NCBI GenBank assembly: GCA_012519745.1
Contig: JAAYPO010000068.1
Location: 3,154-67,153 of the forward strand
DNA length: 64,000 nt
Direction of reading: 5' to 3'
Origin: Clostridiaceae bacterium
GTDB lineage: Bacteria; Bacillota; Clostridia; Acetivibrionales; DTU013
How positions within the stretch are numbered: the stretch's first letter is position 1; the number at the start of each line of letters is the position of its first letter. This document shows positions 1,564 to 20,895 of this stretch, piece after piece. Under the pieces are notes generated by a model. It did no database searches. It had not been told where the DNA came from and worked only from the letters and a program-made list of their open reading frames with translations. The translations under genes and the position numbers were made by a program.

Positions 1564-1654
1564 CATCATATTATATAAATGGATCCACAAGCAAAAGCAG
1601 CCTAAAAAAGTAAACATAAAGAGGGAAAAGCAGTTTTGTGTCGAAATATATACT

Positions 1655-5111: not shown

Positions 5112-5178
5112 TTGCATAATATCAGCGATTCATTCAAGACTATGTATATGAAAGATATTGCATAGAAGGAGAATGAAG

Positions 5179-5343: not shown

Positions 5344-5350
5344 AGAAAAC

Positions 5351-5381
5351 GGGTCGTGATCGCGGATCACGGCCCATTTTT
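5351..5381 (+). terminator. Rho-independent terminator, probably bidirectional
   Basis: An 11-bp stem GGGTCGTGATC/GATCACGGCCC (one G-U pair) with a 3-nt loop, followed by ATTTTTAT on the + strand. On the - strand the same hairpin is followed by GTTTTCTTC. Confidence 0.6.
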
Positions 5382-5397
5382 ATAGGCTCCTGTGTGG

Positions 5398-5626: not shown

Positions 5627-5657
5627 TTACTAGCAGGGGACGTCCCCTGCTTCCGTG

Positions 5658-8600
5658 CTATTGTCCGCAGAGGCGGCGGTACGCTTCGTAGCGGTCCTGG
5701 GCATGGGCCTCCGATTGCTGGAAGAGGTTTTCTGCCAGGTCGGGGAAGACGTTCATCAGCTGGGTGTAGCGCACCTCGCCGGTGAGGAAATCCCTGTAGG
5801 GTCGTTCCGGCTTCCTGGATTCGAGCTGGAACGGGTTTTTGCCTGCCTCACGCAGCTCCGGGTTGAACCGGTAGAGGTGCCAATAGCCCGTATCCACGGC
5901 CTTGCGCTCCTCTGCGATGCTGGTGCCCATTCCGGACTTGATGCCATGGGATATGCAGGGAGCATATGCAATGACCAGCGACGGTCCCTTGTAGTTCTCG
6001 GCCTCTGTCAGCGCCTTTATCGTCTGGTTCATATTGGCCCCCATTGCGATTTGTGCCACATAAACATATCCATAGCTCATTGCCATCATGCCAAGATCCT
6101 TTTTCTTCATGTGCTTTCCTGCAGAAGCGAATTTGGCTACTGCTCCGGCAGGAGTTGCCTTAGAGGACTGACCGCCTGTGTTGGAATATATTTCGGTGTC
6201 CAGTACTAATAGATTGACATCGGCTCCTGTTGCCAGGACGTGGTCAAGGCCTCCGTAGCCGATATCGTAAGCCCATCCGTCACCCCCTATTATCCAGAAG
6301 GATCTCTTGGTCAGATAGTCTTTTTTGCTCATTATTTCTTCCAGGAGCCTGTTGTCTTTCAAATCTGTCTCTGACAAAGCCTTGAGTACATTTGCAGAGG
6401 CAGCCTCAGAGGCTTCGCCGTCGTCCTTGGACTCAAGCCACGCACCGAAGGCCTGCTTGACTGAAGCCGGCAGCTCCTGCTCCATGCTTTGCCGCATCAG
6501 ATCGGCAATGCGCTCTCTTATTTGATTGACTCCAAGGTACATGCCGAATCCGAACTCCGCATTGTCTTCGAATAATGAATTGGCCCATGCCGGCCCTTTG
6601 CCCTTCGAATTTGTTGTGTATGAGATGGACGGAGAGCTGGCGCTCCAGATGGATGAGCAGCCTGTTGCGTTGGCTATCATCATGCGGTCCCCGAACAGCT
6701 GAGTGATGAGCCTGACGTAAGGAGTTTCACCGCATCCGGGACAGGCTCCGTTATATTCCAGCAGCGGCTGTACGAATTGGCTTCCCTTCAGCGTCTTTTT
6801 GTCCATGACATTTTCCTTTGGAGCCAGGGACAAAGAGAACTCCCAATTGTCGTCCTGTTTTTCTGTTTCCTCCTCTGCAGGCACCATTATCAGCGCTTTC
6901 TCGGAGGTAGGGCAGACATCGGCACAATTGCCGCAGCCGGTGCAGTCCAGTGGACTGACCTGTACTCGGAAGCGCATGTTTTCAAGCCCTTTTCCGGCTG
7001 CCTTCAGTGTAGTATAGTTTTCCGGCGCTTTAGCGGCCTCCTGCTCATCCAGCAGGAACAGCCGTATCGTAGCATGGGGGCATACATACGAGCATCTGCC
7101 GCACTGTATGCAGTTATTGGGCTGCCATTGGGGCAGCATTATTGCTATACCGCGCTTTTCATAGGCTGTGGTCCCCAGGGGATGTGTCCCGTCCTCTATG
7201 CCGTTGAAAGCGCTGACAGGCAGCTCATCTCCTTCATGGCGGGCCATGGGCCTTTGTATCCTGTGTATGAAATCCGGCAGTGTTTCAGGCGTCCTGCTCT
7301 CGTCGGGAGCATCGGCCCATTCTTTTGGTACGCTTACCTCGTGCAGTGCGCCGATGGAGAGGTCCACTGCCTGGTTATTCATGTCGACTATTTTCCTTCC
7401 CTTTCTTCCGTAGGCACTTTCGATGGAAGCCTTCAGATACTTTATCGCATCCTCCACCGGAATGATGTTTGCAAGCTTGAAGAACACTGTCTGCATAATC
7501 ATATTTATCCTGTTGCCAAGACCGATATCTCCTGCTATTTTTACTGCGTCTATAGTGTAGAAGCTGATATCGTTTTGGGCAATATACCTTTTCAGCTTTG
7601 CAGGGAGATTGGTTTCAAGCTCGTCTGCATTCCATGGGCAGTTCAGCACGAACACTCCCTTCTTTTTCAGGCCTTTAAGGATATCATAGTTGTACAGGAA
7701 CGACTTGTTGTGGCAGGCGATATAGTCTGCATTATATACGAGGTAAGGGCTCCTGATGGGGTTCGGCCCGAACCTGAGATGGGAAACTGTCGTACCGCCG
7801 GATTTTTTGCTGTCGTATGAGAAGTATGCCTGTGCGTAAAGGTCCGTATTATCTCCGATGATCTTTATCGCCGATTTATTGGCGCCCACAGTGCCGTCGG
7901 ATCCGAGGCCCCAGAACTTACAGCTGATGGTGCCTGCGGGTGTGGTTTCGATGATGTCTCCCTCCGGCAGTGAGGTATATGTGACATCGTCGACTATACC
8001 TATGGTGAACCCGTCCTTTGGTTCATTGCTCATAATGTTTTCAAATACCGCAGCTATCTGTGACGGGCGTGTATCCTTGGAGCCAAGACCGTATCTGCCG
8101 CCAATTATGAGAGGCTTCTGTCCGCTCACGCTGTAATACGCCTTGCAGACATCCAGATAGAGCGGCTCGCCGGGAGAGCCGGGCTCCTTTGTACGGTCCA
8201 GGACCGCTATTCCTTTCGCTGATTTTGGTATGGCATCCAGCAAATGCTTTTCTGAAAACGGCCTGTAGAGTCTGACCCTGACCGCACCTGTCTTTTTGCC
8301 CTCTGCATTCATATAGTCCACGGTTTCGTTGACAGTGTCACATACCGAACCCATCGCGATTATTACATATTCGGCATCAGGTGCTCCGTAATAATCAAAC
8401 AGATGGTAGCTCCTGCCGGTTGTCCGCTCTATATCCTTCAGGCAGTCTTCGACGATGGAGGGCACCCGGTCATAAAACTTGTTTGAGGCTTCTCTTCCCT
8501 GAAAGTATATATCAGGGTTCTGAGCTGTCCCTCTGGCAACAGGGTGCTCGGGATTCAGAGCCCTGTTTCTGAAATCGCTGACAGCCTGGATATCCACCAG

Positions 8601-9176
8601 CCCCGCCAGATCAGAATACTCTATGGTGCTGATTTTCTGGACCTCGTGGGAGGTCCTGAAGCCATCGAAAAAGTGGACGAAGGGGATCCTGGATCTGATG
8701 GCGGCCAAATGCGCCGCACAACCCAGGTCCATGACCTCCTGCACATTGGCTGAGGCCAGCATGGCGGCACCTGTCTGCCTGCAGGCCATGACGTCCTGAT
8801 GGTCGCCGAATATGGAAAGGGCATGGGCTGCAAGGGCGCGGGCAGAAACGTGCAGCACGCCGGGCAGAAGCTCCCCCGCCATTTTATACAGGTTTGGTAT
8901 CATCAGCAGCAAGCCCTGTGAGGCTGTATAGGTAGTCGTCAGTGCGCCTGCCTGCAGAGAGCCGTGCATGGCGCCTGCGGCACCTGCCTCGGACTGCATT
9001 TCTACAACATTTACTATCTGGCCGAATATGTTCTTTTTACCATGTGATGCCCACTCGTCGACATATTCTGCCATGGGTGATGACGGCGTTATTGGAAAGA
9101 TCGCGGCGACCTCGGTAAATGCGTATGAGGCGTAAGCTGCAGCCTGATTGCCGTCCATTGTTGACATTTTCATCAA
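5658..9176 (-). CDS. nifJ: pyruvate:ferredoxin (flavodoxin) oxidoreductase
   Basis: 1172 aa. The N-terminus GNQAAAYASYAFTEVAAIFPITPSSPMAE is typical of the family. Two 4Fe-4S ferredoxin motifs are present (CIQCGRCSYVCP and CTGCGNCADVCP), as is the TPP-binding block IIGGDGWAYDIGYGGLDH. Confidence 0.97.
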   Translation of the reverse strand: MMKMSTMDGNQAAAYASYAFTEVAAIFPITPSSPMAEYVDEWASHGKKNIFGQIVNVVEMQSEAGAAGAMHGSLQAGALTTTYTASQGLLLMIPNLYKMAGELLPGVLHVSARALAAHALSIFGDHQDVMACRQTGAAMLASANVQEVMDLGCAAHLAAIRSRIPFVHFFDGFRTSHEVQKISTIEYSDLAGLVDIQAVSDFRNRALNPEHPVARGTAQNPDIYFQGREASNKFYDRVPSIVEDCLKDIERTTGRSYHLFDYYGAPDAEYVIIAMGSVCDTVNETVDYMNAEGKKTGAVRVRLYRPFSEKHLLDAIPKSAKGIAVLDRTKEPGSPGEPLYLDVCKAYYSVSGQKPLIIGGRYGLGSKDTRPSQIAAVFENIMSNEPKDGFTIGIVDDVTYTSLPEGDIIETTPAGTISCKFWGLGSDGTVGANKSAIKIIGDNTDLYAQAYFSYDSKKSGGTTVSHLRFGPNPIRSPYLVYNADYIACHNKSFLYNYDILKGLKKKGVFVLNCPWNADELETNLPAKLKRYIAQNDISFYTIDAVKIAGDIGLGNRINMIMQTVFFKLANIIPVEDAIKYLKASIESAYGRKGRKIVDMNNQAVDLSIGALHEVSVPKEWADAPDESRTPETLPDFIHRIQRPMARHEGDELPVSAFNGIEDGTHPLGTTAYEKRGIAIMLPQWQPNNCIQCGRCSYVCPHATIRLFLLDEQEAAKAPENYTTLKAAGKGLENMRFRVQVSPLDCTGCGNCADVCPTSEKALIMVPAEEETEKQDDNWEFSLSLAPKENVMDKKTLKGSQFVQPLLEYNGACPGCGETPYVRLITQLFGDRMMIANATGCSSIWSASSPSISYTTNSKGKGPAWANSLFEDNAEFGFGMYLGVNQIRERIADLMRQSMEQELPASVKQAFGAWLESKDDGEASEAASANVLKALSETDLKDNRLLEEIMSKKDYLTKRSFWIIGGDGWAYDIGYGGLDHVLATGADVNLLVLDTEIYSNTGGQSSKATPAGAVAKFASAGKHMKKKDLGMMAMSYGYVYVAQIAMGANMNQTIKALTEAENYKGPSLVIAYAPCISHGIKSGMGTSIAEERKAVDTGYWHLYRFNPELREAGKNPFQLESRKPERPYRDFLTGEVRYTQLMNVFPDLAENLFQQSEAHAQDRYEAYRRLCGQ

Positions 9177-9298
9177 GAAGCACTCCTTTATTCTAAACTA
9201 AGCATTATTGTTGTATTATTTCAAAAATATGATCCAATCATGTATCAGCTTGATGCAGGGAATTTGATATACTGCATGCCGATACAGCAATGGGGTGA

Positions 9299-9327
9299 TT
9301 GAAAATATCATTTAAAAATAATATAAT
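9299..9327 (+). promoter_or_regulatory. sigma-A-type promoter for the REC-GGDEF / kinase operon
   Basis: TTGAAA, a 17-nt spacer and TATAAT, about 67 nt upstream of ATG 9394. Confidence 0.6.
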
Positions 9328-9393
9328 AGATAAAGCATGAGTTTTGTCGAGTATCTGCGATTGGTATAAGATTATTGATAAGTGAGGTTCAGG

Positions 9394-11352
9394 ATGGAAA
9401 TTGAAAACAAAAGAATCCTCATAGCTGACGATAACAAGGATATACATGATGACATCAAGTATATCCTTGAGACTTCTTCCGGGTATATGGAGGACTATCA
9501 GGAAACAAAGCTCCTGAAGGAGGAGCTGTTTGGAGAGAGCCGGCAGAGCCCTGCAAATAAGGCTGTAATAGATATAAAGTATGATATCGATGATGCTTAT
9601 CAGGGGAACGAGGCCATTGAAATGGTCAGCAGGGCCAGAGAAGCCGGAGAACCTTATTCGCTGATATTCATGGATGTCAGGATGCCGCCGGGGATGGATG
9701 GGATCGAGACAATAGAGAAAATATGGGAGATCGACCGTGATGTGGGTGTAGTGATATGTACCGCATATTCGGATTACTCCTGGGATCAAATCATTTCAAA
9801 GCTTGGGCACAAGGATAACCTTCTGTTTATAAGAAAACCCTTCGACAATGTATCACTGAAGCAGATAGCTCTTGCCATGACTACAAAATGGAGCCTGAAA
9901 ATGCAGGTGAAAAAGCATATAGGAACCCTTGAGCAGGAAGTGGACAAAAGGACAATGGAGCTTAAGCTGACCGTTGAGAAGCTAAGGGATGAAATAGTGC
10001 TCCGTGAAGAAAAGGAGAAGCTTTTGGCGTATAGCGCCCATTATGACTCATTGACTGAGCTGCTCAACAGGAGATCCTTCTCTGACTCCGTCAAATCACT
10101 CATCGATGAGGAGCCGAGCCGCTGCAGGTCGTTTTCACTATTCTATCTTGACCTTGATGATTTTAAAAGCGTCAATGATATTTACGGTCACGATATCGGA
10201 GACCAGCTGCTGATCAAAGTGTCAGAGAGGATAGGAAGGATGCTGGATGAGCATGCATGCTATGTGCCGGACTATGTAAGCGAGCACGGAAAGGTAAAGG
10301 CTATATTCAGACTTGGAGGAGATGAATTCACGGCAGTTGTAAATGAGACAGACCGAAGGGCTGTGGGAAAAATAGCGCAGTCTCTTATTGACTCGATCAG
10401 TGAGCCTTATATCATCTCAGGGCATGAGGTAGATGTTTCCTGCTGTATCGGTATCAGCATATACAAAGGGAAGGATACTCCGATAAATACATTGCTGAAG
10501 TATGCGGATATAGCTCTCTATGAAGCGAAGAAGGTACACAGCACATATAGGTTCCATGAACTGTCGGAGTCATATTCCTACATCAATGAAAAAAGGATCG
10601 AGAGGGAATTAAAAAAAGCCATCGCCAGGAATCAGATCGATGTATATATGCAAAGTCTGGTCAACACCAGGGATGAGGTCATCGGAATGCAGTCGCTGAT
10701 CAGGTGGCTGCACCCGGAATATGGTGAGCTTGAGCCCGGGCGTTTTTTGCATATCGCACAGAAATCCGACCAGATCATTGTCCTTGGCGCATATGTTATC
10801 AGGAAATCACTGGAGTATCTAAAAAGGATACATGAATCCGGCCACGACAAGCTTTTTGTGATGGTCAGCTGTACATCCAGGGAATTTTACCATCCGGGTT
10901 TTGTTGACAGCATAAAGTCGGCGGTCAATGAAGCAGGCATAGCGCCGTCATATCTGAAGCTTAATCTGGAGGACAAGTTCACCTTCCAGACTACACCGGG
11001 TGCCCTGGCTATTATTCGGGAGCTCAATGAGTTCGGGGTACAGTTTGCCCTCAATGGCTTTGACAGTGATTATCCTGCATTCGTTTTCCTGCAGCAGGTC
11101 CCGAAGGATACTATGATCAAGCTTAACAGAGCGTATGTCAAAAATATTGCCACAGATACAAAAAACCAAAAATTTCTGATGGCTCTTATGGATATCATTG
11201 AGACCTGGGAACTGGATGTGATCATAAGCGGTATTGAGACCCAGGAGCAAAAGAGCATCCTTGATTCAAGGGAGTGTATACTGCAGGGGTATCATTTCAA
11301 TACACCCAAGCCCATCGACCAGTATCTGAAAGATCTTGCGGCAGGAGAATAA
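9394..11352 (+). CDS. response regulator: REC + GGDEF (intact) + degenerate EAL domain
   Basis: From ORF 9382..11352, with ATG 9394 preferred (GTGAGG RBS). REC blocks: ILIADDN, FMDVRMPPGMDG, VICTAYSD, IRKPF. GGDEF domain with RLGGDEFTAV. The EAL-like domain has its key residues replaced: GMQSLIRW, VSCTS, LNLED, NGFDSDY, KLNRAY, SGIET. QGYHF is retained. Confidence 0.85.
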   Translation: MEIENKRILIADDNKDIHDDIKYILETSSGYMEDYQETKLLKEELFGESRQSPANKAVIDIKYDIDDAYQGNEAIEMVSRAREAGEPYSLIFMDVRMPPGMDGIETIEKIWEIDRDVGVVICTAYSDYSWDQIISKLGHKDNLLFIRKPFDNVSLKQIALAMTTKWSLKMQVKKHIGTLEQEVDKRTMELKLTVEKLRDEIVLREEKEKLLAYSAHYDSLTELLNRRSFSDSVKSLIDEEPSRCRSFSLFYLDLDDFKSVNDIYGHDIGDQLLIKVSERIGRMLDEHACYVPDYVSEHGKVKAIFRLGGDEFTAVVNETDRRAVGKIAQSLIDSISEPYIISGHEVDVSCCIGISIYKGKDTPINTLLKYADIALYEAKKVHSTYRFHELSESYSYINEKRIERELKKAIARNQIDVYMQSLVNTRDEVIGMQSLIRWLHPEYGELEPGRFLHIAQKSDQIIVLGAYVIRKSLEYLKRIHESGHDKLFVMVSCTSREFYHPGFVDSIKSAVNEAGIAPSYLKLNLEDKFTFQTTPGALAIIRELNEFGVQFALNGFDSDYPAFVFLQQVPKDTMIKLNRAYVKNIATDTKNQKFLMALMDIIETWELDVIISGIETQEQKSILDSRECILQGYHFNTPKPIDQYLKDLAAGE

Positions 11353-11353
11353 T

Positions 11354-13918
11354 ATGTATAAACGTATCGGTCCGGATCCGCACAAAAAAAGATATACCTT
11401 TGGCTTTCTGGATGAGAACATCGATAATGATTTTCACAACCTGATCCTGGAGGGCATATCGGAGGCCGCCCGGGAGCTGGACATAGATGTGATCAGATTC
11501 AGCTACTATTCCTCCCACATAGCCTACAAATTTTCACATCAGGTAGATATGGTCCTTGATCATATACAGCAGTACGATCTTGACGGACTGCTGTTTCTCG
11601 GCTGGACCCAGGCAGGGGCGATGTACAATCATGAGGATTTCATGCGGCGTTTCGGTTCCATGCCTTTGTTGAGCCTTGGTACTATTTTCGATGATATACC
11701 GTCTGTCTATTTTACGGGTGATGAATTCATTGCAAAGATGACACGCCATCTCATAGAGGTGCACAACCTGACAAGAATAGCTTATGTAGAGCATTACAGA
11801 GCCGATAACAGAAGGGATGCCTATGAACGTGTCATGCGTGAATACGGGATATATGATCCCAGGCTGTATGTGGGGAATGATGTGCTTCCATCAGGGATGG
11901 ACCAGCATCAGGAGAGAAGCAGGAGAGCTGCGCAGGTCCTGATGGACGAGAGAAAGCTTGATGTCCAGGCAGTTATATCACCGAACTACAATGAAACCGG
12001 TTTTTTAATAGATGAGTTTCAGTCCAGAGGCTTTAGCGTGCCTGCAGATATTGCCGTCGTCAGCTACGAGGAGGGCGATTTTGCAGAGTACTCCTATCCC
12101 GGATACACTACGGTGTATTTTCCCTGGAGGGAGCTTGGCTATGTTGGCTGCGTGAAGCTGGAGAAGCTTGTAAGGGAAGGCAGCATACCCATGGAAACGG
12201 AGCTGTCCGATTATGGCAGGATAATATACAGAGAATCCTGCGGATGCCTCCCATATTATGTAAGACCGGCAGACGCGGAGCGTACCGGTGATTCGGTACA
12301 TGGTGTCGACGGCATGACTGCCTTGGAGAAATGTAATATCGTGAATTCGCTTTACTCGTTGTACGAAGGCTGTGGTATATCCTTTGAGAAGCTGGTAGAT
12401 GCATTTATAATTGCATTCATATGCAGGGATGGCATGACCTTTCTCAAGGAGGCGGAAGAACAGCTGCGAAATATAAAGGCACATTCCAAGATAAATGAAT
12501 TGGCAACCGATATCAGAAACCTGATCTACCCGTTCTTACTTACAGATATCAATGGGATGTTGTGGTCAGGCAACCTGTTCATGCAGTTCCAGGCCCTTGT
12601 CAGTGAAAAGACGGCATGTATGCACGGAGTAGAGGTGCTCAGGGCAAGGATGATGGACCAGAGCCTGCAAAATCTGGACCAGCGGCTGTTTTTGAATTTC
12701 TCGCTCCACCATCTCATTACCGTACTGGAAGACGGATTGAAAATGCTTGAGATAAACAGCTGCCATATTTTTATATCAAATTCTATTTTTACCGGCACAG
12801 ATGTGGAGGAAAATCTTTTTGACAACAGTGTGCTGCTGTTCAAGTATGTAAACGGGAAAAGGATAGAGACATCCCAAATGGCAGGCAGCCTGAAGCAGCA
12901 GCTGGCCATGATCCGGTCAGAAGGGATAGGACAGGTATCGCTGGCCTATTTGCTGCATGTGACAGATGAAATAATGGGATTTGTGCTGTTTGGTCCGGGT
13001 GCGGGACCGCTGGATGAGATATTCTATCAAACCCTGTCTACCAACATCAGTACTTCCCTGCATGGTATCGTGCTTTTGAACAGGCTGGACCAGGCTTACA
13101 GAAAACTTGTGGAGCATGCCCAGAAGGAAGGGATGGCTGACATTGCTGCAAATATCCTGCACAGCATAGGAAACACGCTCAATAGCATGAATGTCTCACT
13201 TCATCTGGTGGAGGAAAGCTCCGGGGCACAGCTGTTCAGCGACATCATCATGGCGGGCGGGCTGCTTGGTGAAAACATGATGAGGCTGGAGGAGTTCATC
13301 AGCTCGGATGTGAGGGGCAAAAAGCTCATGCAGTTTTATCTGAAGCTGGGGAATGCCGCCGAAAGACTGCAGCTGCAGCTGATCCAGAACATGTACAGAC
13401 TCAAATCAAAGATTGCCGCCATCAATGATGCAGTTGCGGCACAGCAAAGCTACGCAGGGATAGACGTAAGGCTTGAGGAGCTTTTGCTGGAGCCCATAAT
13501 CGAAGATGCCCTCAAGCTGAACAAGGATACCTTCGACAGACAGTCCATCACTGTCGCCAGGGAGTATGAGCCCGGCTTCAGGGCGCTGGTACACAGGGCA
13601 AAGCTGTTTTTTATCATTTTCAATATCATTTCAAATGCCAGAGATGCAATGAGCAGTTATCCTGCAAATAATAAAACCATCTCGATAAAGACATACACGG
13701 ACAACTCCGGAAAGTATCTGAGGATAAGCGATAATGGCAGAGGTATCCCGGAGGGCAGTCTTGACAGAATATTTGAATATGGATTTTCCACCAAGGAGGG
13801 CCGCTCCGGTTACGGACTGTACAGCTGCAGCAGATATATGGAGGATATGGGCGGAACGATCCATGCCGAAAGCGACGGGAAAGAAAAGGGAGCGTCCTTT
13901 GTTCTCAAGTTTTCATAG
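11354..13918 (+). CDS. soluble sensor histidine kinase with N-terminal LacI/periplasmic-binding-fold core domain (paralogue 1)
   Basis: From ORF 11336..13918. ATG 11354 (AGGAGA RBS) lies 1 nt after the RR stop. LacI-core-like blocks: GFLDENIDNDFH, DGLLFLGW, RIAYVEH..RRDAYERVM, DIAVVSYEEGDF. I see no HTH, signal peptide or TM segment. H-box ANILHSIGNTLNS, N-box FNIISNARDAM, G1 DNGRGIP, G2 GYGLYSC. Confidence 0.75.
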   Translation: MYKRIGPDPHKKRYTFGFLDENIDNDFHNLILEGISEAARELDIDVIRFSYYSSHIAYKFSHQVDMVLDHIQQYDLDGLLFLGWTQAGAMYNHEDFMRRFGSMPLLSLGTIFDDIPSVYFTGDEFIAKMTRHLIEVHNLTRIAYVEHYRADNRRDAYERVMREYGIYDPRLYVGNDVLPSGMDQHQERSRRAAQVLMDERKLDVQAVISPNYNETGFLIDEFQSRGFSVPADIAVVSYEEGDFAEYSYPGYTTVYFPWRELGYVGCVKLEKLVREGSIPMETELSDYGRIIYRESCGCLPYYVRPADAERTGDSVHGVDGMTALEKCNIVNSLYSLYEGCGISFEKLVDAFIIAFICRDGMTFLKEAEEQLRNIKAHSKINELATDIRNLIYPFLLTDINGMLWSGNLFMQFQALVSEKTACMHGVEVLRARMMDQSLQNLDQRLFLNFSLHHLITVLEDGLKMLEINSCHIFISNSIFTGTDVEENLFDNSVLLFKYVNGKRIETSQMAGSLKQQLAMIRSEGIGQVSLAYLLHVTDEIMGFVLFGPGAGPLDEIFYQTLSTNISTSLHGIVLLNRLDQAYRKLVEHAQKEGMADIAANILHSIGNTLNSMNVSLHLVEESSGAQLFSDIIMAGGLLGENMMRLEEFISSDVRGKKLMQFYLKLGNAAERLQLQLIQNMYRLKSKIAAINDAVAAQQSYAGIDVRLEELLLEPIIEDALKLNKDTFDRQSITVAREYEPGFRALVHRAKLFFIIFNIISNARDAMSSYPANNKTISIKTYTDNSGKYLRISDNGRGIPEGSLDRIFEYGFSTKEGRSGYGLYSCSRYMEDMGGTIHAESDGKEKGASFVLKFS

Positions 13919-13934
13919 GAGATGTGATGATATT

Positions 13935-16469
13935 ATGGGACGGAGATTTAGAATAGGCTTTGTGGATGAGGATACATATGACGAATATCACAATTTACTG
14001 ACCAAGGGCATACTGGACTCTGCATGTCAGAATAATATGGATATCATACGTTTCAGCCACTTCCACTATCAGGTCACCTCATCAAACCCGTATCATGAGA
14101 GCGTATATATCGGGCTGATCCGCCAATTCAGACTGGATGGGCTGATCTTTTTGGGATGGGAACGTACTGCCTATAACAGCAGCTTTTTTGAGAGCATGAA
14201 GGATATACCCATGGTCAGTGTGGGTGTACGATTCGACAATGTGGCCGGTGTATATTTCAGAGGCCAGATATATGTAGCTGAAATAATCAGGCACCTGATC
14301 AATGTGCACGGGATGAAGAAGATAGCCTTCATCGCTCCCATCAGGCCTGATGACAGGACGGATGCCTATTTTGAGGTCATGGACAGCTATGGTATGTACG
14401 ACCCCCGTCTTTTCATCAGCCATGAGGAATTATCCGGCCTTGACCAGAGTGAAAGGGGCAGGAGAGCCGTCGGGATCCTTCTCGATGAAAGAGGACTGTG
14501 CCCGGAGGCAATAGTTTCGCTGTATAATGAGGAGACCTTCCAGATAGTGAATGAACTGCAGAGAAGAGGACTTAGGGTCCCGGACGATATAGCGGTAACA
14601 AGCTATGAGGACGGTGAGACCGGCAGATTTTCAATGCCGGCCTTCACAACGGTGTATTTCCCATGGAAGGAGCTTGGGTTCCATGCCTGCGAGGTGATGA
14701 ATGCGCTGCTGACCAAGGGAGAGGTACCTCTGGAAACGATAGTTCCCGGCAATTTGATCTATCGCAGCTCATGCGGATGTATCCCCCAATCGGCGATCTC
14801 CATGGAGACCGGAAGTATCCCGTATTCAGATATCAGGTTCGAGGACCTTGACGAGGACGGACTAAAGAGGATCATCAACGGCATTGCGGAGATGACACCG
14901 TTTGATGCGGCCGAGGCAGGTGCACTGATGGATTCCTTCAGGGAAGCCTTTTACAAGGGTGAGCACAGTTCCTTCCTCATGAAGTTCGAGATGATGCTAA
15001 GGAAGGTGCGTTTTTATGATGAATTCAGAGAATTCAAGCATATAACCGTTGTGTTCCGGAAGCTGCTGATGCCCTATTTCCTTCCGTACGCAGGAGTTTC
15101 TATGGAAAAACCGGTGTGGGCCGACAATATGTTCCATCAGATGCAGGTAATCCTGCAGGACAGGCTGGCAAATGCGTGGTTCCGCAAGGATGTGGAATAC
15201 AACAAGCAGAAGCTTGCCCTGAGGGAAGCAGGGAAGGTATTGTTGACCAGCTTCAGTGTGGAGAGCTTATTTGCAACACTGGAGGCCAATCTGCCCGGTC
15301 TTGGCATAGACAACTGCTGGCTTTATCTCTTTAATGACAGAGAGGGAACGGATATCCCTGATGATTTCCGTCCGGAGTTCATATTCAGGGACGGCAGCCG
15401 TGCTGCGGATCAGAGGCTGTATGACAAGAGCGGCCCCCTATGCCTGGAGGATATATGGTTTGATGATGATACGCCTCATTTCCTGATGTCGCATCTGTTG
15501 TATCAGGGTGATCAGTTCCTTGGTTTCTGTGTATTTGAAACCGGGCTGATGGATGTGAGGATAATCCGCAGCCTCAGTATCCTGATCAGTATAGCTCTCA
15601 ACAGCACCATATTGTTTGAGAAGCTGGACCAGAGCTATAGAAAGCTGATGGAAAAGGCCCATAAGAAAGGGATGTCGGACACCACAGCGATACTTCACAA
15701 CATAGCGAATATAATGAACAGCATCAATGTAACATATCAGGGCCTTGCCGGCATTATCGAGGGAAGTTGTGTTTACGATCTGAAAAGAGCCAATGAGATG
15801 CTGGAAGGCAAATTTGAGCAGTTGGATGATTTTATCAGGAACGATCCAAAGGGAAGGCTCCTGATGCAGTATTATCTTTCCTTCGGCGATTCATTCAGGC
15901 AGCTGCAGAGCAGGCTGAAGGAATATGCCTCCAGAATGCTGGACAAGACCGGCCTTATCGAGGATATCATCAACTCGCAGCAGAGCTTCGAGGGCATCAG
16001 ATCCAATCTGGAGCTGATGGATATCATACCTGTATTGGAGGACGCGCTGAAAATGAGCCGGAATATAATTGACACCAGCGGCGTACAGGTCGTCAAAAGA
16101 TATGACAGACAGGTCAAGGCTCTGGCACAGAGGACTAAACTGATACACATACTGATCAATATCATAAAGAACGCGGTGGAATCGATGCAGCATGGCAATG
16201 CCTCTGATAAGGTACTGACCATCGAGGTGACCTGCGATAGAGAGAGTGTCTATCTCCGGATTTGTGATACAGGACCGGGCATAGAAGCAGGAAAGCTTGA
16301 AAGCATTTTCGCCTATGGCTTCACTACAAAAACCACCGGACATGGCTTTGGGCTCCATAGCTGTGCAAACTATATGGCTGAAATGAAAGGGAGGATATGG
16401 GCGGAAAAGCCTGAAACAGGCACAGGCGCTGTCTTTGTGATGCAATTCAGGTCTCAGCCCTCCCTTTGA
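13935..16469 (+). CDS. soluble sensor histidine kinase with N-terminal LacI/periplasmic-binding-fold core domain (paralogue 2)
   Basis: From ORF 13734..16469, with the start moved to ATG 13935 (MGRRFRIGFVDEDTYDEYHNL; AGGAG RBS). It is collinear with the upstream kinase: DGLIFLGW, KIAFIAP..DRTDAYFEVM, DIAVTSYEDGE. H-box TAILHNIANIMNS, N-box INIIKNAVESM, G1 DTGPGIE, G2 GHGFGLHSC. Confidence 0.75.
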   Translation: MGRRFRIGFVDEDTYDEYHNLLTKGILDSACQNNMDIIRFSHFHYQVTSSNPYHESVYIGLIRQFRLDGLIFLGWERTAYNSSFFESMKDIPMVSVGVRFDNVAGVYFRGQIYVAEIIRHLINVHGMKKIAFIAPIRPDDRTDAYFEVMDSYGMYDPRLFISHEELSGLDQSERGRRAVGILLDERGLCPEAIVSLYNEETFQIVNELQRRGLRVPDDIAVTSYEDGETGRFSMPAFTTVYFPWKELGFHACEVMNALLTKGEVPLETIVPGNLIYRSSCGCIPQSAISMETGSIPYSDIRFEDLDEDGLKRIINGIAEMTPFDAAEAGALMDSFREAFYKGEHSSFLMKFEMMLRKVRFYDEFREFKHITVVFRKLLMPYFLPYAGVSMEKPVWADNMFHQMQVILQDRLANAWFRKDVEYNKQKLALREAGKVLLTSFSVESLFATLEANLPGLGIDNCWLYLFNDREGTDIPDDFRPEFIFRDGSRAADQRLYDKSGPLCLEDIWFDDDTPHFLMSHLLYQGDQFLGFCVFETGLMDVRIIRSLSILISIALNSTILFEKLDQSYRKLMEKAHKKGMSDTTAILHNIANIMNSINVTYQGLAGIIEGSCVYDLKRANEMLEGKFEQLDDFIRNDPKGRLLMQYYLSFGDSFRQLQSRLKEYASRMLDKTGLIEDIINSQQSFEGIRSNLELMDIIPVLEDALKMSRNIIDTSGVQVVKRYDRQVKALAQRTKLIHILINIIKNAVESMQHGNASDKVLTIEVTCDRESVYLRICDTGPGIEAGKLESIFAYGFTTKTTGHGFGLHSCANYMAEMKGRIWAEKPETGTGAVFVMQFRSQPSL

Positions 16470-18003
16470 ACCCTACCGAGGAAAGGGCTGCCATAGCGGC
16501 AAAGCAGACTGTGACGATACCGGCGGCACGTATAAACATCGGTGCGGCTGCAAGCAGATTGCCTGCGGCAAGGGCTGCCAGCCATGATGCTGTGCCTGCA
16601 AGTATGAGCAATACGATATCTGACAGTTTGATCTTTATCTCACAGATCTTTTTGATTTCATTCATATTCAGAATAAATGATGTAACCGATGTGAGCATTA
16701 TGGACAGTCCGTATCCATATATATTCAGCACCGGTATCCCGGCAAGTACGGTGGTCTGGACAAGGTTCTGCACTGAGTGTATCAGAGAATTCTTCAGCAG
16801 TATGTTCTGCTTCCCCAGGGCATTGAGTATTCCGAAGGTGGGGGAGGAGATAAAGGTGATAAGGCAGATGGGAGCAGAAAACCTTATCATTGCACCAAGA
16901 TCGCTGCGCTGGTAGAAAAGCCTGCCAAGGGTTTCCGGAATGACCATGCACACTATGGCAGTAGATATCCCTATCATGCATGATATCCTCATGACCTGGG
17001 CGATCCTCTCCTCTGCCGACCAGTAATCCTTCCTGCTGATATTGAGAGAGACGTCGGGGACCAGGACCGTGAGCATGGAGCCGATTATCAGGAAGGGCAG
17101 TGTGGATATGTTGAGGGCCATGCCGCCGAATCTTCCGATGAGCGCAAGGGCTTCCCGATAGGAAAAGCCTGCGGCTATCAGCCTGCGGGGGAGTATCAAT
17201 GCACACACTGTGGATATTACCGATGACAGGACGCCGTTCACACACAGCGGAGCGGAAATGACCAGCACATCGAAAAAAAGCTGTATCCTTGACTTGACCC
17301 TCGCGCCGCCGTTTCCTTTGTATCTGGCTTTTTTGACCCTGTAGCAGATGAACAGAGTCACCAGACTTATCATTTCTCCCAATGCCAGCGCAAAAAAGGC
17401 AATGGCAACTGTACCTGCCACACTTTCAGGCCGGAGCAGTGCAATGGTCCCAAGCAATATCACTACTCTGAGGATTTTTTCGAGGATATCCACTGAGGCG
17501 GTTATCTTAAACTGCCCCATGCCATAGAAATAGCCCTTGATCACTGCGGAAAGAGGCACGAACACTAGAGCAGGCGAAAGGATCATCAGAGCGTCCGAGG
17601 CCCGTGCATCCCGGACAAAATGGACTGCGATGGTCCTGTGGAACACCACCACCATCAGAGCAATGAAGGCGGCCCAGGCGGCGGCAAGTACAAAAACTGA
17701 GCTGAGCGTCCGGTTTAGATTTCCATATTCCTTCCGGCTGAAGTATACCGTCGATATTTTTGAAATTGCTGTTATGATGCCGTCGGTGGTGATGCACAGC
17801 AAAAGCGCGTAGACAGGCATTACCAGACCATATAGCCCCAGGCCCTCGGCCCCGAGCTTTCTGGACAATATAATGGAAAAGACAAAGGCGATGATGCCTG
17901 TTGCCATATTGGATAAGGTCAGCATTAGAGAATCCCTGTAAAATTTGTCTACACGTCTCCATATCCGGGATCCTTTGATATGGGCAGCGGATAATCTTCT
18001 CAT
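16447..18003 (-). CDS. spoVB: stage V sporulation protein B-like MOP/MurJ-superfamily flippase
   Basis: 518-aa polytopic membrane protein. The N-terminus FYRDSLMLTLSNMATGIIAFVFSIILSRKLGAEGLGLYGLV aligns with recalled B. subtilis SpoVB (FLKGTLILIAAGMVTRMLGF..IGEEGVGLYMM). It lies 29 nt downstream of tgl. The start has no clear RBS. Confidence 0.65.
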   Translation of the reverse strand: MRRLSAAHIKGSRIWRRVDKFYRDSLMLTLSNMATGIIAFVFSIILSRKLGAEGLGLYGLVMPVYALLLCITTDGIITAISKISTVYFSRKEYGNLNRTLSSVFVLAAAWAAFIALMVVVFHRTIAVHFVRDARASDALMILSPALVFVPLSAVIKGYFYGMGQFKITASVDILEKILRVVILLGTIALLRPESVAGTVAIAFFALALGEMISLVTLFICYRVKKARYKGNGGARVKSRIQLFFDVLVISAPLCVNGVLSSVISTVCALILPRRLIAAGFSYREALALIGRFGGMALNISTLPFLIIGSMLTVLVPDVSLNISRKDYWSAEERIAQVMRISCMIGISTAIVCMVIPETLGRLFYQRSDLGAMIRFSAPICLITFISSPTFGILNALGKQNILLKNSLIHSVQNLVQTTVLAGIPVLNIYGYGLSIMLTSVTSFILNMNEIKKICEIKIKLSDIVLLILAGTASWLAALAAGNLLAAAPMFIRAAGIVTVCFAAMAALSSVGFKGRAET

Positions 18004-18032
18004 AAGTAAAAACTATTCAGGTCTTGAGCCAA

Positions 18033-18791
18033 TTATGAAGCAAATTTCCAGTAGCGATACAAACCGTGGAAATCAGGCCGTGTGGCGGAATCCATCAGAT
18101 AGGCGGATACCTGTGAGCCGGCGATCCTGTTTTGATTGAGGGCTCTTATGAAATACTCCACATCACCTGTGCCTATACCATGACCGTAATATCTGCCGCT
18201 TCCCAGATCGATGATGTTCTCCCCCTGCCACTCGGGTGTCAGCGGATTCACATCCGGATTCTTCACATACCTGCAATCGCCCGGTACATAGTCGGGCAGT
18301 CTGCGGTAGGTCGATACACCCAGCAGGTCGTCCATGTCACGCCAGTTCATAAGCACGATCTCACCGAAGGCTTTGTTGAACAGGTCTGCCTTGTATGAAT
18401 CCAGTACAGCCTTGTAGTATATGATCACGATCGCGGTAGCACATTCCGTGCCATACAGGCGTGTGTTGACGAATATGTCGTCGATGGCCTCGGAGGGTCT
18501 GACGCCGGTCTTGAGTGTGAAGCCTCCGTCCACTCTTCTGTTCCAATATCTTTCATTGCATTTGGATTCCTGGAATATGCGGAATGCCAGCCTGCTTCTG
18601 TAAAGTGCGATGGAGGCGTCGATGATATGACGCCGCAAATCAGCCTCAAAAACTAGCTCCTCTCCCGAGGAGTAATCATATACATGACTGCTGTCTATGT
18701 ATGCTCTCAGGAACTCATATTCGGGACTTCCGCTGCCGTATCTGTCAAGAATTTTTTTCGGATCATCCTGGCCGTCTGCAAACCTGATCAT
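18033..18791 (-). CDS. tgl: protein-glutamine gamma-glutamyltransferase (spore-coat transglutaminase)
   Basis: 252 aa. It is collinear with recalled B. subtilis Tgl: ECATAIVIIYY is identical, GDCRYVKNPDV matches GDCLYFKNPEF, WQGENIIDLG matches WRGENVILLG, and YYGHGIG matches YFAHGLG. Confidence 0.92.
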   Translation of the reverse strand: MIRFADGQDDPKKILDRYGSGSPEYEFLRAYIDSSHVYDYSSGEELVFEADLRRHIIDASIALYRSRLAFRIFQESKCNERYWNRRVDGGFTLKTGVRPSEAIDDIFVNTRLYGTECATAIVIIYYKAVLDSYKADLFNKAFGEIVLMNWRDMDDLLGVSTYRRLPDYVPGDCRYVKNPDVNPLTPEWQGENIIDLGSGRYYGHGIGTGDVEYFIRALNQNRIAGSQVSAYLMDSATRPDFHGLYRYWKFAS

Positions 18792-19873
18792 GCCGATCCC
18801 CCCGTGATTTCAGATACTGTCTCTGCCTGTTTGTCAACCGGCTGTCTGATCCATGGATCCCACCGATAGATATCTCTTTGGTGGAGCATACAGGAGAAGC
18901 TGGCCAGATGCTGCTGTTCTGTCCCAGTCAGTTTGGAGAAACCGACGAGCTGATTCATCTCCCAGTCCTCAAGGGGGTACAAGGGCCTTCCGCTGTCTGG
19001 TGACACAGGACGGCAAAGGTACTTGGCCTCAAGTGATACCGCATAGCAGACAGGCCTGCTGCACATTTGCATCGTCTCACCTGTATAGCACAAAAAGGGC
19101 CTGTTTTCCGAGATCCATTGCATTGCTCTCAGATATGCCAGGGTGCCTGCTGCTTCCTCCAGGCCCGGAATAAAGCACAAAAGCTTCCTTGCCAGTGCTG
19201 TATCTTTGCTGTCAGCAGAGATCAGCCTTTGAGCTATCAAATACAGACTATCGGGATTGCAGGCTTCGAAAAACGCCCATACCAGATTGTGGATCAGCTT
19301 TCCCTGTCTGTTCCTATCAAAGATCTTTTCGGCAACTGCAGCAAGAAGGCTGCTGTTTCTGAAGCTCTTGAGGAGTATCCCGCTGCACCGTTCCAGAAGC
19401 AGTTCGTATGCCGCCCTGCCGAGATCGTCCTCCCAGCCTGTTTTTACTATCCACTCAAGTGCCGGGGATACCTGCCGGGTTTCAGAACGCATCCTGCTTT
19501 CGATCTGTGCAAGCCTCAGGCCCGATGATCGCCTCGCCGATCCTCTTCTTATCCCGGCCGGTGTTCTGAAGAAAGCTCTGGACAATGCCCTGCCCGAAGC
19601 CTTAGGTACGCTGCTTCCGGCAGAATGCTCCGACAGTTCTTTGGTGATTTCCAGAGCTTTCCTGTACAGCGGCGGCAGCTCTTCCAAAAGCGAAGCCGAA
19701 GCTATATCCTGCCGCAGAATGTACAATGAGCAAAACCGAAGATTTCCGTCCCTTAGCAGCTGAAGGAGTTTTTCGCGGTCCGTATGAAGCAATTCGTGGA
19801 AATAGGTCCTGAGGCTGTCGGGGCCGTTACTGATCCTTATGTTGTCAAGCAGCGCCGTCTGCATGCCGGTCAT
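18788..19873 (-). CDS. hypothetical protein (361 aa), translationally coupled to tgl
   Basis: Its TGA stop overlaps the tgl ATG (ATGA, 18788-18791). AGGA RBS lies 9 nt upstream of ATG 19873. I recognise no family motif. Confidence 0.6.
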   Translation of the reverse strand: MTGMQTALLDNIRISNGPDSLRTYFHELLHTDREKLLQLLRDGNLRFCSLYILRQDIASASLLEELPPLYRKALEITKELSEHSAGSSVPKASGRALSRAFFRTPAGIRRGSARRSSGLRLAQIESRMRSETRQVSPALEWIVKTGWEDDLGRAAYELLLERCSGILLKSFRNSSLLAAVAEKIFDRNRQGKLIHNLVWAFFEACNPDSLYLIAQRLISADSKDTALARKLLCFIPGLEEAAGTLAYLRAMQWISENRPFLCYTGETMQMCSRPVCYAVSLEAKYLCRPVSPDSGRPLYPLEDWEMNQLVGFSKLTGTEQQHLASFSCMLHQRDIYRWDPWIRQPVDKQAETVSEITGGSA

Positions 19874-19917
19874 ATGTCACCATCCTCTCTCGAAGGCCTT
19901 TTGGCTTTGCCGGATCT

Positions 19918-20895
19918 TCAAAGCTGCCTTTGAAGCTCTGATAACCTTTCTTTCATCTGCGGATCGGGATCATACTCAAGACCGTACATTACAGCTCTCT
20001 CGGCCCTTGCCTTGTCTCCGGTCTTTAAAAATGCATCGGCAAGGTTGTACCAGCCTGTGATATCCTTCGGATCCTGTCTAAGCTTTTTGATATAGTAGGG
20101 AAGCACCTTGCCGGCAAGATAGCGCGTTCTGTCGAGACTTTCCAGATCCATGCCGTTCCAGTGCACCAGTTCGATGTCGAAAATACCAGGGGCGGACTCA
20201 TGCCATAAGGCACAAGCATCCTTGACACGGCCGGAGGCGGCTCTCTTTTTGACAAGCTCCAGTTTGCTGTATTTTTTACTGAAAATCTTCTTTGAGCCTC
20301 CGTCAGATACGGAGTAGGCTATAAGTGTCCGATCCGGCTGTCCCGAGGCAAGTCCCAGCAGCAGAGTCGATTTCCCGTCGCCTGCAATGTCGGCATCGTT
20401 GCGGTAGTGTATTGATGTGAACTCGGGATTGCTGATCTCGGCCATTTTGTACCACTGGACCTCATCCTTTTTGAGCACCAGGGTCCGGATGCCCTCGCCT
20501 GTACTGTATGAGGTGACAAGCTCGCTGCGCCCGTCACCGTCAAGGTCGGCAAATTGTATTTCGCCTGCATTTTCAGGATATTGCGGCTTCACGAGCCTGG
20601 CACCCGGAGGCAGAAAGCTGTTGACAACAGCATTGTAGTCGATTTTTTCAGGTTTTGCGTTAAGCTGTACAGTAATATTGCTTAGCCTTTTTATTATCGA
20701 TCCCACAGGTCTTCTCAGGTTGCCAAGGGAAGGCAGCCCGATTGCTGGAAGGTTGTTGATCGAAGAGATTTTTCTCAGAGCCGGGATGAAGTTTTTTCTG
20801 AAACGGTCCGGATCAAGCAAGCCGGAATAGTATCTTATGCTTCTTGCGGCCAGCTTATCCAGGACCTCAAGACCCGAGCCTTTAGGCAGCTGCAT
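19918..20895 (-). CDS. FG-GAP/VCBS-repeat protein with C-terminal TPR-like region
   Basis: From ORF 19918..20916, with the start moved to ATG 20895 (MQLPKGS; AAAGGGG RBS 8 nt upstream). Ca-binding FG-GAP-like motifs FADLDGDGRSELV and DADIAGDGKSTLLL. C-terminal TPR-like WYNLADAFLKTGDKARAERAVMYGLEYDP. Confidence 0.6.
   Translation of the reverse strand: MQLPKGSGLEVLDKLAARSIRYYSGLLDPDRFRKNFIPALRKISSINNLPAIGLPSLGNLRRPVGSIIKRLSNITVQLNAKPEKIDYNAVVNSFLPPGARLVKPQYPENAGEIQFADLDGDGRSELVTSYSTGEGIRTLVLKKDEVQWYKMAEISNPEFTSIHYRNDADIAGDGKSTLLLGLASGQPDRTLIAYSVSDGGSKKIFSKKYSKLELVKKRAASGRVKDACALWHESAPGIFDIELVHWNGMDLESLDRTRYLAGKVLPYYIKKLRQDPKDITGWYNLADAFLKTGDKARAERAVMYGLEYDPDPQMKERLSELQRQL

Follow-up and report, generated by a model that had tools for sequence, protein, structure and literature searches.

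Among the closest described systems is the Lpl0330/Lpl0329 pair of Legionella pneumophila (Lpg0278/Lpg0277), in which a histidine kinase acts on a REC-GGDEF-EAL regulator, and in which phosphorylation of Lpl0329 lowered its cyclase activity in vitro. Lpl0330 is said to define a kinase subfamily through its atypical H-box, a proposal reportedly made by Levet-Paulo et al. in 2011. Binding-protein sensor domains are found in the Bacteroides hybrid two-component protein BT1754 and in BvgS-type Venus-flytrap kinases, where they are extracytoplasmic and linked to the kinase via transmembrane (TM) helices. Nearly all studied kinase sensors face outward, and few c-di-GMP inputs are known in Clostridia. 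In 2022, a census of the sensory domains found in c-di-GMP signalling listed the LacI-like domain as one to which no function has been assigned, and a literature search for experimental studies of LacI-core kinases, or of the ~590-amino-acid module described below, returned none, only reviews that call the domain unstudied or exclude it.

Here, we describe a three-gene operon in the window, a 64,000-nucleotide stretch of a Clostridiaceae assembly (contig JAAYPO010000068.1), encoding a response regulator (gene 1) and the histidine kinases HK-A (gene 2) and HK-B (gene 3) (Table 1). On balance, we favor reading it as a two-component system that controls c-di-GMP synthesis from within the cytoplasm, with two metabolite sensors feeding one diguanylate cyclase. 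Much of this interpretation was already contained in the original prediction, whose domain calls, dead EAL domain, kinase paralogy, cytoplasmic location and operon logic stood up to analysis, whereas its description of the architecture as unusual and its suggestion of an RbsB-type fold did not.

Table 1. Features of the operon, with positions in the window.
Feature	Position	Strand	Details and basis
Sigma-70-like promoter TTGAAA-17-TATAAT	9299-9327	+	11/12 consensus match
Gene 1 (REC-GGDEF-EAL response regulator)	9394-11352	+	652 aa; Pfam domains
Gene 1 receiver domain	9394-9873	+	D12/D13, phospho-acceptor D94, T123, K148
Gene 1 receiver insertion, about 39 aa	9475-9591	+	Conserved E-x-x-L-K-E-E-L-F-G core; alignment
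Gene 1 GGDEF domain	10036-10536	+	RLGGDEF, residues 306-312; Pfam
Gene 1 EAL-like domain, degenerate	10603-11307	+	HMMER alignment, orthologue comparison
Gene 2 (soluble histidine kinase HK-A)	11354-13918	+	854 aa
HK-A LacI/CcpA-type ligand-binding core (PBP type I) without HTH	11387-12229	+	Peripla_BP_3, E=1.2e-17; Foldseek
HK-A S-C-G-C motif (C296, C298) directly after core	12236-12247	+	Homologue alignment
HK-A helical region (323-464) and GAF-like alpha/beta domain (469-546)	12311-13009	+	AF2 models
HK-A signalling helix and DHp	13016-13453	+	H-box ILHSIGNTLNS; two inserted helices between DHp helices
HK-A phospho-acceptor H603 codon	13160-13162		
HK-A catalytic ATP-binding domain	13466-13912	+	HATPase_c, E=1.2e-18; N, G1 and G2 boxes intact
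Gene 3 (soluble histidine kinase HK-B)	13935-16469	+	844 aa; paralogue of HK-A
HK-B LacI-type core	13941-14765	+	Pfam; alignment to HK-A
HK-B SCGC motif	14769-14780	+	Alignment
HK-B H-box ILHNIAN (H588)	15690-15710	+	Orthologue alignment
HK-B CA domain	16002-16451	+	HATPase_c, E~1e-18

ORF analysis gave each gene a plausible ATG and ribosome-binding site, and the tight packing that had been proposed is seen, with all three genes on one strand and intergenic gaps of 1 and 16 nt. The near-consensus promoter is likewise present, in the intergenic region shared with a divergent PFOR gene. A scan of promoter-like sites yielded 21 compared to 13.1 ± 3.7 in shuffled sequences, and a second 11/12 site lies within gene 2, at 12384; the upstream match is real but is weak evidence taken alone. 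Across 34 related MAG loci, an operon comprising the regulator and at least two kinases was syntenic in 31, sometimes in the order HK-HK-RR, and gene 1 orthologues were found in 32. Kinase copy number varies, with three tandem paralogues in one MAG and other numbers at L027, L033 and L040. The predicted logic of two kinases plus one REC-GGDEF regulator is supported by this recurrence and echoed by natural single-chain fusions of the kinases' sensor module (module::GGDEF, module::GGDEF-EAL and module-HisKA-HATPase-REC-GGDEF). Among culturable species, module::GGDEF occurs in Cohnella xylanilytica DSM 25239 and Gorillibacterium massiliense G5, and in Clostridium puniceum DSM 2619 the module is joined to a YesM-type kinase, with a YesN-type regulator. 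The neighboring PFOR, SpoVB-like flippase and TGL genes represent conserved synteny without an obvious link to the operon.

In gene 1, Pfam identified Response_reg (residues 61-157), GGDEF (215-381) and EAL (404-638) domains, the first limited to this range because of the receiver insertion at residues 28-66. This insertion had been put at ~45 residues; we observed it at about 39-40. The receiver motifs listed in Table 1 were kept in 30/30 orthologues, and no regulator had lost D94, T or K. The RLGGDEF motif, claimed to be intact, is so in gene 1 and is invariant among orthologues, and the GGDEF part is matched by PleD and related structures. The RxxD I-site is absent, with KVKA in gene 1 and x-V-[KRN]-A in orthologues. 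By its sequence, the regulator combines an intact receiver with an intact GGDEF active site that lacks an I-site.

The EAL-like domain presents a different picture. HMMER alignment to the active EAL domains 5m3c and 4rnf revealed the motif changes EAL->QSL, N->S, ExxE->NLED, DDFGTG->NGFDSD, KxD->KLN and EGVE->SGIE (Q433 for E, S for N, N for E, N554-G555 for DD, N for D and S612 for E). Every substitution behind the earlier claim of a dead EAL domain was recovered, and the test for conserved catalytic residues came out negative. All four phosphodiesterase metal ligands and the general base are lost, also when aligned to RocR, and the domain is predicted to be unable to hydrolyse c-di-GMP. It retains R437 (the R of EALxR), K, QG and the Q of YQP; of these, R, QG and the Q of YQP are c-di-GMP contacts in active EAL domains. 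With substrate contacts kept and the acidic metal ligands replaced by Q, S, N and N, the domain would most likely serve as a non-catalytic c-di-GMP-binding or dimerisation element.

Alternatively, the EAL-like domain may not be a c-di-GMP site at all and may instead be a protein-interaction or dimerisation domain (as in YdiV, BluF and CsrD) or a slowly decaying remnant, which we consider the less likely case though one to be taken seriously. The complete loss of metal ligands and general base would suit it, as would the absence of the domain from 4/32 regulators, which reflects four losses in separate lineages, with kinases that share 40-57% identity with HK-A. Because of these four regulators, any feedback through the EAL-like domain is not essential to the circuit, and some lineages manage without the domain. 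Where present, however, the domain matches GGDEF in conservation (mean orthologue identity of 64% compared to 60%), and the substituted motifs NGF[DE]S[DA]Y and SGIE are fixed among orthologues; it is therefore not decaying. The retained c-di-GMP-contacting residues also argue against this alternative, and the acidic-to-amide exchanges would be compatible with metal-free nucleotide binding. A non-catalytic c-di-GMP-binding or dimerisation element is still the reading we prefer.

Turning to the kinases, HK-A and HK-B share 34% identity across an alignment of 855 columns (E=5e-169), as expected of the paralogues they had been proposed to be. Pfam matched both to Peripla_BP_3 at the N terminus (E=8.9e-21 for HK-B) and to HATPase_c at the C terminus. 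The top Foldseek structures for the N-terminal regions were the cores of CcpA, LacI, RbsR, GntR and PurR, with TM scores of about 0.75-0.84 (target-normalised). Sequence and structure searches therefore both place a PBP fold in the input domains. Regarding the proposed LacI/RbsB-type core, the LacI/CcpA half was upheld (Foldseek TM about 0.8) and the RbsB half was not: the best sequence and fold matches were LacI-family repressor cores, which rules out an RbsB-type periplasmic protein. No HTH was detected by Pfam in either kinase, the HK-A core beginning at residue ~12 and the HK-B core at residue ~3, and the N terminus leads straight into the first core strand. Neither a signal peptide nor a TM segment was found in the N-terminal sequences and hydropathy scans of the two kinases, with at most one marginal Kyte-Doolittle window reaching 1.6 per kinase compared to 108 in a neighboring membrane protein. 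These results exclude a secreted or membrane location and agree with the cytoplasmic one first suggested.

To compare ligand pockets, we used an E. coli LacI sequence as the reference. HK-A R153 aligns with LacI R197, the equivalent of which is conserved, and the Clostridial clade departs from the LacI pocket at D274 (to E) and F293 (to W). HK-A and HK-B carry group-specific residues at positions aligned to LacI L73, A75, S193, N246 and Q248, with the N246 position variable in HK-A and Y/F in HK-B. Some N-lobe loops of the HK-A model are of low confidence (pLDDT <50 at 56-58 and 87-90). Although the pocket changes and these loops weigh against it, we propose that the cleft of each LacI-type core binds a small molecule present in the cytoplasm, for which the sugar or sugar phosphate first suggested would be one candidate. 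The cleft residues differ between the two paralogue groups, so the kinases probably read related but different ligands.

The original prediction did not include three further features of the kinases: a CGC motif, a helical and GAF-like region, and the atypical H-x-x-G-N type of the H-box, which has no Pfam HisKA match. An R-x-S-C-G-C motif after the core was present in 119/120 homologues, and the S, C and C of SCGC were invariant across 45 sampled members of the wide module family. It is followed by a helical and GAF-like region of ~290 residues. No Pfam family matched residues 300-590 of the kinases, and a Foldseek search with a separate model gave weak GAF matches (E=5e-4 to 1e-2). Using hhalign, HK-A residues 10-590 aligned with the N-terminal module of a 1069-aa family at a probability of 100%. 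The Pfam GAF domain of these 1069-aa relatives was rejected as the identity of the 300-590 region, since it is an additional domain that follows the shared module.

A profile of the module-specific region identified 2,805 protein clusters (50% identity) at E≤1e-10, notably from Chloroflexota and Bacillota, with members labelled in databases as 'substrate-binding domain-containing protein'; the module is widespread in metagenomes. Their outputs are varied (HK, GGDEF, STAS, SpoIIE, AraC and MCP), and the ~590-aa architecture is therefore common rather than rare; calling a LacI-core kinase unusual was an overstatement. Speculatively, and with limited conviction, we propose that this ~590-residue unit (LacI-type core, CGC, helical bundle and GAF-like domain) is a distinct widespread class of cytoplasmic sensor serving kinases, cyclases, STAS/SpoIIE partner-switching, AraC regulators and chemoreceptors, in which the CGC pair would form a metal or redox centre where the two protomers join. 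In that case, the module would combine metabolite sensing with the sensing of redox state or of a metal.

The invariant CGC motif and the GAF-like domain could also be the true sensing elements in place of the cleft. In one such account, which strikes us as doubtful, the kinases respond to redox state or to a metal, with CGC pairs forming an inter-subunit Zn, Fe-S or disulfide site from two Cys per protomer and the LacI-type core acting chiefly as a scaffold for dimerisation. No feature of the module family is conserved more strictly than SCGC, which is lacking in LacI itself and is located exactly at the junction that must pass the signal on, and this clade has drifted from the canonical cleft residues of LacI. 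Yet each chain contributes only two Cys, no further universal Cys or His was seen beyond those typical of LacI-family cores, and the R197-equivalent Arg and other cleft residues are kept within each orthologue group, which is not expected if the core is a mere scaffold.

At the output end, Foldseek placed the C-terminal half of the kinases on HK853, YF1 and ZraS, and AF2 predicted DHp helices at residues 595-623 and 653-699 of HK-A. No Pfam HisKA-family match was found in the kinases at E≤0.1. Compared to the H-E-x-x-T/N-P of the HisKA type (PF00512), the H-box reads H-S-I-G-N in HK-A, which aligns weakly with the KinB H-box, and H-N-I-A-N in HK-B. The phospho-acceptor His (H603/H588) and the N, G1 and G2 boxes were conserved in 33 HK-A and 34 HK-B sequences. 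Taken together, sequence and models show HK-A and HK-B to be soluble kinases with a LacI/CcpA-type two-lobe core, CGC motif, helical bundle, GAF-like domain, long signalling helix, atypical DHp and intact ATP-binding domain. At L054, an unrelated CHASE8-HAMP-PAS-GAF kinase with the H-box VLHNVGNVLNS adjoins receivers that have the same type of insertion and the same motifs as gene 1. The insertion characterises a receiver subtype that accompanies the H-x-x-G-N H-box and is not peculiar to gene 1, and this co-occurrence supports cognate pairing of the kinases with the regulator.

We envisage that closure of the lobes is felt at the DHp by way of the CGC, helical and GAF-like region, shifting the balance between kinase and phosphatase activity. 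H603 of HK-A and H588 of HK-B would then exchange phosphate with D94 of the regulator, and phosphorylation of the receiver would change cyclase output by altering the geometry of the GGDEF dimer. By default one would expect activation, the case in PleD, WspR and DgcR; given the lower activity of phosphorylated Lpl0329, the sign of regulation cannot be assumed for gene 1, and the reverse is possible. That HK-A and HK-B constitute an obligate heterodimer or a kinase/phosphatase pair, and so effectively one input channel, seems improbable: the two are co-inherited one-to-one and adjacent in 31/34 loci, LacI cores and DHp domains are both dimerisation modules, and the HK-B H-box has drifted (G606 to A, S or N in most HK-B, with G kept in 33/33 HK-A), but both kinases retain the phospho-acceptor His and all ATP-binding boxes, are only 40% identical in the signalling helix and DHp, and vary in copy number between loci.

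Genomic context offered no ligand clue, either around this operon and related loci or in the gene neighborhoods of the cultured relatives C. puniceum and Cohnella, which were uninformative. A functional tie to a nearby EIIC-EAL gene was rejected based on EIIC-EAL homologues elsewhere that do not adjoin this kinase family. A search of the window for a c-di-GMP riboswitch found only a c-di-AMP riboswitch.

In this conserved circuit, repressor-type cores, which normally switch genes directly, seem instead to feed a phosphorelay that ends at a cyclase, so that lifestyle decisions could depend on the levels of metabolites inside the cell. Once identified, the ligand and the role of the CGC motif would provide annotation for a large block of unassigned signalling proteins, and the module may be useful as a soluble, modular sensor scaffold for engineering.

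Compared to known systems, the kinases share with LacI/GalR repressors (CcpA, LacI, RbsR, PurR and GntR) a cytoplasmic type I two-lobe core and the R197-equivalent Arg, but they have no HTH, continue from the core into the CGC motif, helical and GAF-like region and kinase, and have several cleft residues replaced. BT1754 and the BvgS-type kinases resemble HK-A and HK-B in that a binding-protein fold, joined in cis to the histidine kinase, provides its input, whereas HK-A and HK-B lack a signal peptide and TM segments and use a repressor-type (Peripla_BP_3) core. Like PleD, WspR and DgcR, the regulator places an intact GGDEF domain under a phosphorylatable receiver; it differs in its insertion-bearing receiver, missing RxxD I-site and appended degenerate EAL domain. 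LapD and FimX, whose EAL structures are detectable homologues (3pjw, 4j40 and 3hv8), also have an EAL fold without catalytic residues, but their GGDEF domains are degenerate as well and they are pure receptors, in contrast to the intact GGDEF of gene 1. As for Lpl0330/Lpl0329, none of the reports found describes Lpl0330 as carrying a sensor module of the LacI type, and the systems were compared by description and motif spacing. In both, a kinase gene adjoins that of a REC-GGDEF-EAL regulator and phosphotransfer controls c-di-GMP synthesis (as predicted here), the phospho-acceptor Asp is unusually far from the N terminus (D87 in Lpl0329 and D94 here), and the GGDEF-to-EAL motif spacing is almost identical (125 and 122 residues). 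The EAL domain is active in Lpl0329 and degenerate here, and the single kinase of Legionella is represented here by two paralogous kinases.

The three genes of the original prediction are tightly packed and co-directional, with intergenic gaps of 1 and 16 nt and ATG starts preceded by GAGG/GGAG-type ribosome-binding sites. Pfam assigned Response_reg, GGDEF and EAL domains to gene 1, and Peripla_BP_3 and HATPase_c to each of genes 2 and 3 (products HK-A and HK-B); an NCBIfam equivalog search with the operon proteins returned nothing above the cut-off. The promoter proposed upstream is present and is the best match in the region, but the same scan places a second site of equal quality within gene 2 and yields just ~1.6-fold more promoter-like sites than in shuffled sequence, so we regard the assignment as plausible rather than strong. 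Gene 3 and a convergent SpoVB-like flippase gene overlap by 23 nt at their 3' ends (16447-16469), and no terminator-like site was found between the two. The flippase belongs to a block whose synteny with the operon is kept in relatives; in six related loci (L001-L006) the block is followed by a small receiver of CheY type together with a CheX-like protein.

Features of the window, of HK-A (AlphaFold2 model) and of loci in other genomes
Feature	Position	Strand	Remark
PTS EIIC-EAL fusion	1478-3820	+	780 aa
Promoter-like TTGAAA-17-TATAAT	9299-9327	+	best in region
Gene 1 (regulator)	9394-11352	+	652 aa
Gene 2 (HK-A)	11354-13918	+	854 aa
S-C-G-C, gene 2	12236-12247	+	directly after LacI-type core
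Gene 3 (HK-B)	13935-16469	+	844 aa
S-C-G-C, gene 3	14769-14780	+	directly after LacI-type core
Flippase gene	16447-18003	-	SpoVB-like
Syntenic block	16447-20916	-	flippase, TGL spore-coat transglutaminase, two unassigned proteins
ORF past block (sole one checked)	21516-22391		291 aa, weak DUF4388 match
ORF below riboswitch	42510-43286	-	
c-di-AMP riboswitch	43286-43456	-	Rfam RF00379, 75.5 bits
Single long ORF	44507-53308	+	2,933 aa
HK-A two-lobe alpha/beta core	residues ~12-292		
HK-A helical region	residues 323-464		
HK-A small alpha/beta domain	residues 469-546		
HK-A long helix	residues 555-592		
HK-A DHp helix 1	residues 595-623		contains H603
HK-A two inserted helices	residues 626-651		
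HK-A DHp helix 2	residues 653-699		
HK-A ATP-binding domain	residues 708-853		
L048 (Spirochaetota MAG)	5950-9744		single-chain fusion
L049 (Spirochaetota MAG)	5953-9657		single-chain fusion
L050 (Clostridium puniceum DSM 2619)	5953-9949		fusion to YesM-type kinase
L054 kinase and flanking receivers	5001-8053, 10150-11193		

HK-A and HK-B are 34% identical end to end, as expected of the proposed paralogues, and no transmembrane segment or signal peptide was found in either, in agreement with their description as soluble. HK-A was modelled with AlphaFold2 from 33 family sequences (mean pLDDT 80.7), and the model was compared with known structures using Foldseek: the N-terminal core matched those of CcpA, LacI, RbsR, GntR and PurR (TM about 0.75-0.84 per target), confirming with Peripla_BP_3 the predicted LacI-type core, and the C-terminal half matched sensor-helix-DHp-CA kinases. 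A separate model of residues 286-592 (pLDDT 82.3) gave weak matches to single GAF domains (E = 5e-4 to 1e-2, TM about 0.5), and we call the small alpha/beta domain GAF-like without claiming GAF membership. The H-boxes, ILHSIGNTLNS in HK-A and ILHNIANIMNS in HK-B, have no Pfam HisKA match. Each orthologue group conserves the phospho-acceptor His together with the N, G1 and G2 boxes, so both kinases look catalytically competent.

In an alignment of HK-A, HK-B and related proteins with E. coli LacI, the Arg that corresponds to LacI R197 is retained in all, and in the Clostridial clade the D274 and F293 positions are Glu and Trp. Other positions are conserved inside each orthologue group and differ between the HK-A and HK-B groups: N versus D at L73, F versus Y at A75, R versus variable at S193, N/Y/S/D versus Y/F at N246, and hydrophobic or small versus E/D at Q248. 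This pattern fits two related but distinct ligands and identifies neither; genomic context yielded no ligand clue.

The more interesting object is the sensor unit itself. The motif R-x-S-C-G-C directly follows the LacI-type core in 119 of 120 homologues, regardless of output domain, and is absent from LacI itself. Profile-profile comparison established homology, at a probability of 100%, between HK-A residues 10-590 and the N-terminal ~600 residues of a 1069-aa family in which this region precedes GAF-HisKA-HATPase. Searching 1.84 billion representatives with a profile of residues 286-592, which deliberately left out the LacI core, matched 3,932 proteins at E<=1e-3, of which 2,805 reach E<=1e-10 and 1,048 reach E<=1e-30, and nearly all of the best 150 matches began at residue ~280-300, right after the N-terminal core. 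On these three lines of evidence we define a ~590-aa module. All 45 sampled matches carried Peripla_BP_3 and an invariant S-C-x-C, along with GAF (20), HATPase_c (19), HisKA (17), PAS (14), STAS (5), GGDEF (3), SpoIIE (2), AraC HTH (2) or MCP signalling (1) domains. Judged by these matches and their varied outputs, the LacI-core kinase, originally thought unusual, is one case of a cytoplasmic input module that is both common and promiscuous. Its description as uncharacterised holds, as literature searches found no experimental study. Members bear generic names such as 'substrate-binding domain-containing protein' (Anaerolineales, Aggregatilineales, Bacillota), a census of c-di-GMP sensory domains lists a LacI-like binding-protein domain among those with function unknown, and a solute-binding protein survey does not count Peripla_BP_3 among receptor sensor domains.

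In the regulator, the receiver residues D12/D13, D94 (phospho-acceptor), T123 and K148 are conserved in an alignment of 30 orthologues. An insertion of ~39 aa (residues 28-66; conserved core E-x-x-L-K-E-E-L-F-G) confines the Pfam receiver match to residues 61-157. RLGGDEF is invariant, and the I-site position reads KVKA, not RxxD. HMMER alignment to the active GGDEF-EAL proteins 5m3c and 4rnf and MAFFT alignment with RocR bore out the predicted dead EAL domain: EAL is replaced by QSL, the conserved N by S, ExxE by NLED, DDFGTG by NGFDSD, KxD by KLN and EGVE by SGIE. None of the four metal ligands is left, and the second-metal Asp and general base are lost as well; retained are the R of EALxR, the Lys, the second Glu of EGVE, QG and the Q of the YQP motif. 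Since the replacement motifs hold across orthologues (Q[AS]L, NGF[DE]S[DA]Y, SGIE) and mean identity to the window protein matches that of GGDEF (64% versus 60%), the domain is long-lived and non-catalytic rather than decaying. Four of the 32 regulators consist of REC-GGDEF alone, at about 396-421 aa, in lineages with kinases 40-57% identical to HK-A, and the circuit can work without the EAL-like domain. Elsewhere in the window, the EIIC sugar-transporter-EAL protein has intact catalytic motifs (EALLR, NVS, ELEITE, DDFGMG, KID); homologues sharing 30-35% identity with it occur widely in metagenomes, none of them beside a LacI-core kinase. A c-di-AMP riboswitch lies directly upstream of an ORF, and no c-di-GMP riboswitch was found within the 64 kb.

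Taking one genome per species, a locus scan yielded 47 loci, of which 34 are close relatives and come without exception from MAGs of uncultured Clostridia/Bacillota. A gene 1-type regulator adjoins at least two kinase paralogues in 31 of these 34, usually in the order RR-HKA-HKB (HK-HK-RR in three loci). As a rule the best-scoring counterpart is HK-A for the first kinase and HK-B for the second, so the duplication is old. One MAG, JAEZJQ01, holds three separate family loci (L027, L033, L040), which include three tandem kinase paralogues with no adjacent regulator within the stretch examined. At L054, an otherwise unrelated kinase with a CHASE8-HAMP-PAS-GAF sensor and the same H-x-x-G-N H-box type has as its flanking neighbours a stand-alone receiver of 184 aa and a REC-PAS protein, both with the gene 1-type insertion and sharing DDNxSIHxDFxKIL, ELFG, IDSAYQG, MPPGWDG and ICTAYSxYSW, so the receiver and H-box subtypes travel together. 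The module is also joined directly to GGDEF or GGDEF-EAL, and two Spirochaetota MAGs encode module-HisKA-HATPase-REC-GGDEF chains of about 1,240-1,265 aa, the operon's whole pathway in a single polypeptide. The cultured C. puniceum has a protein that combines the module with a YesM-type His_kinase domain (PF06580), and a YesN-type REC-AraC regulator comes next. Conservation, subtype pairing, fusions and the Legionella precedent given below support the proposed operon logic well.

Each soluble kinase would read a cytoplasmic small molecule through its LacI-type cleft and pass the signal via the CGC junction, helical/GAF-like region and signalling helix to an atypical DHp; the CGC pair may instead have a redox or metal function. 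Both kinases would then exchange phosphate with D94 of the single regulator, setting the output of an I-site-less cyclase. The main rival here is that HK-A and HK-B form a heterodimer or a kinase/phosphatase pair. The dead EAL domain is probably a c-di-GMP-binding or dimerising accessory, its chief alternative being a purely protein-interaction role.

The original observation was accurate, and we place the operon in an already known kind of system, in which a diguanylate cyclase is under two-component control. The characterised Legionella pair Lpl0330/Lpl0329 likewise combines a kinase with a REC-GGDEF-EAL regulator, with the acceptor Asp at position 87 (D94 in gene 1) and a GGDEF-to-EAL motif spacing of 125 residues (122 in gene 1).
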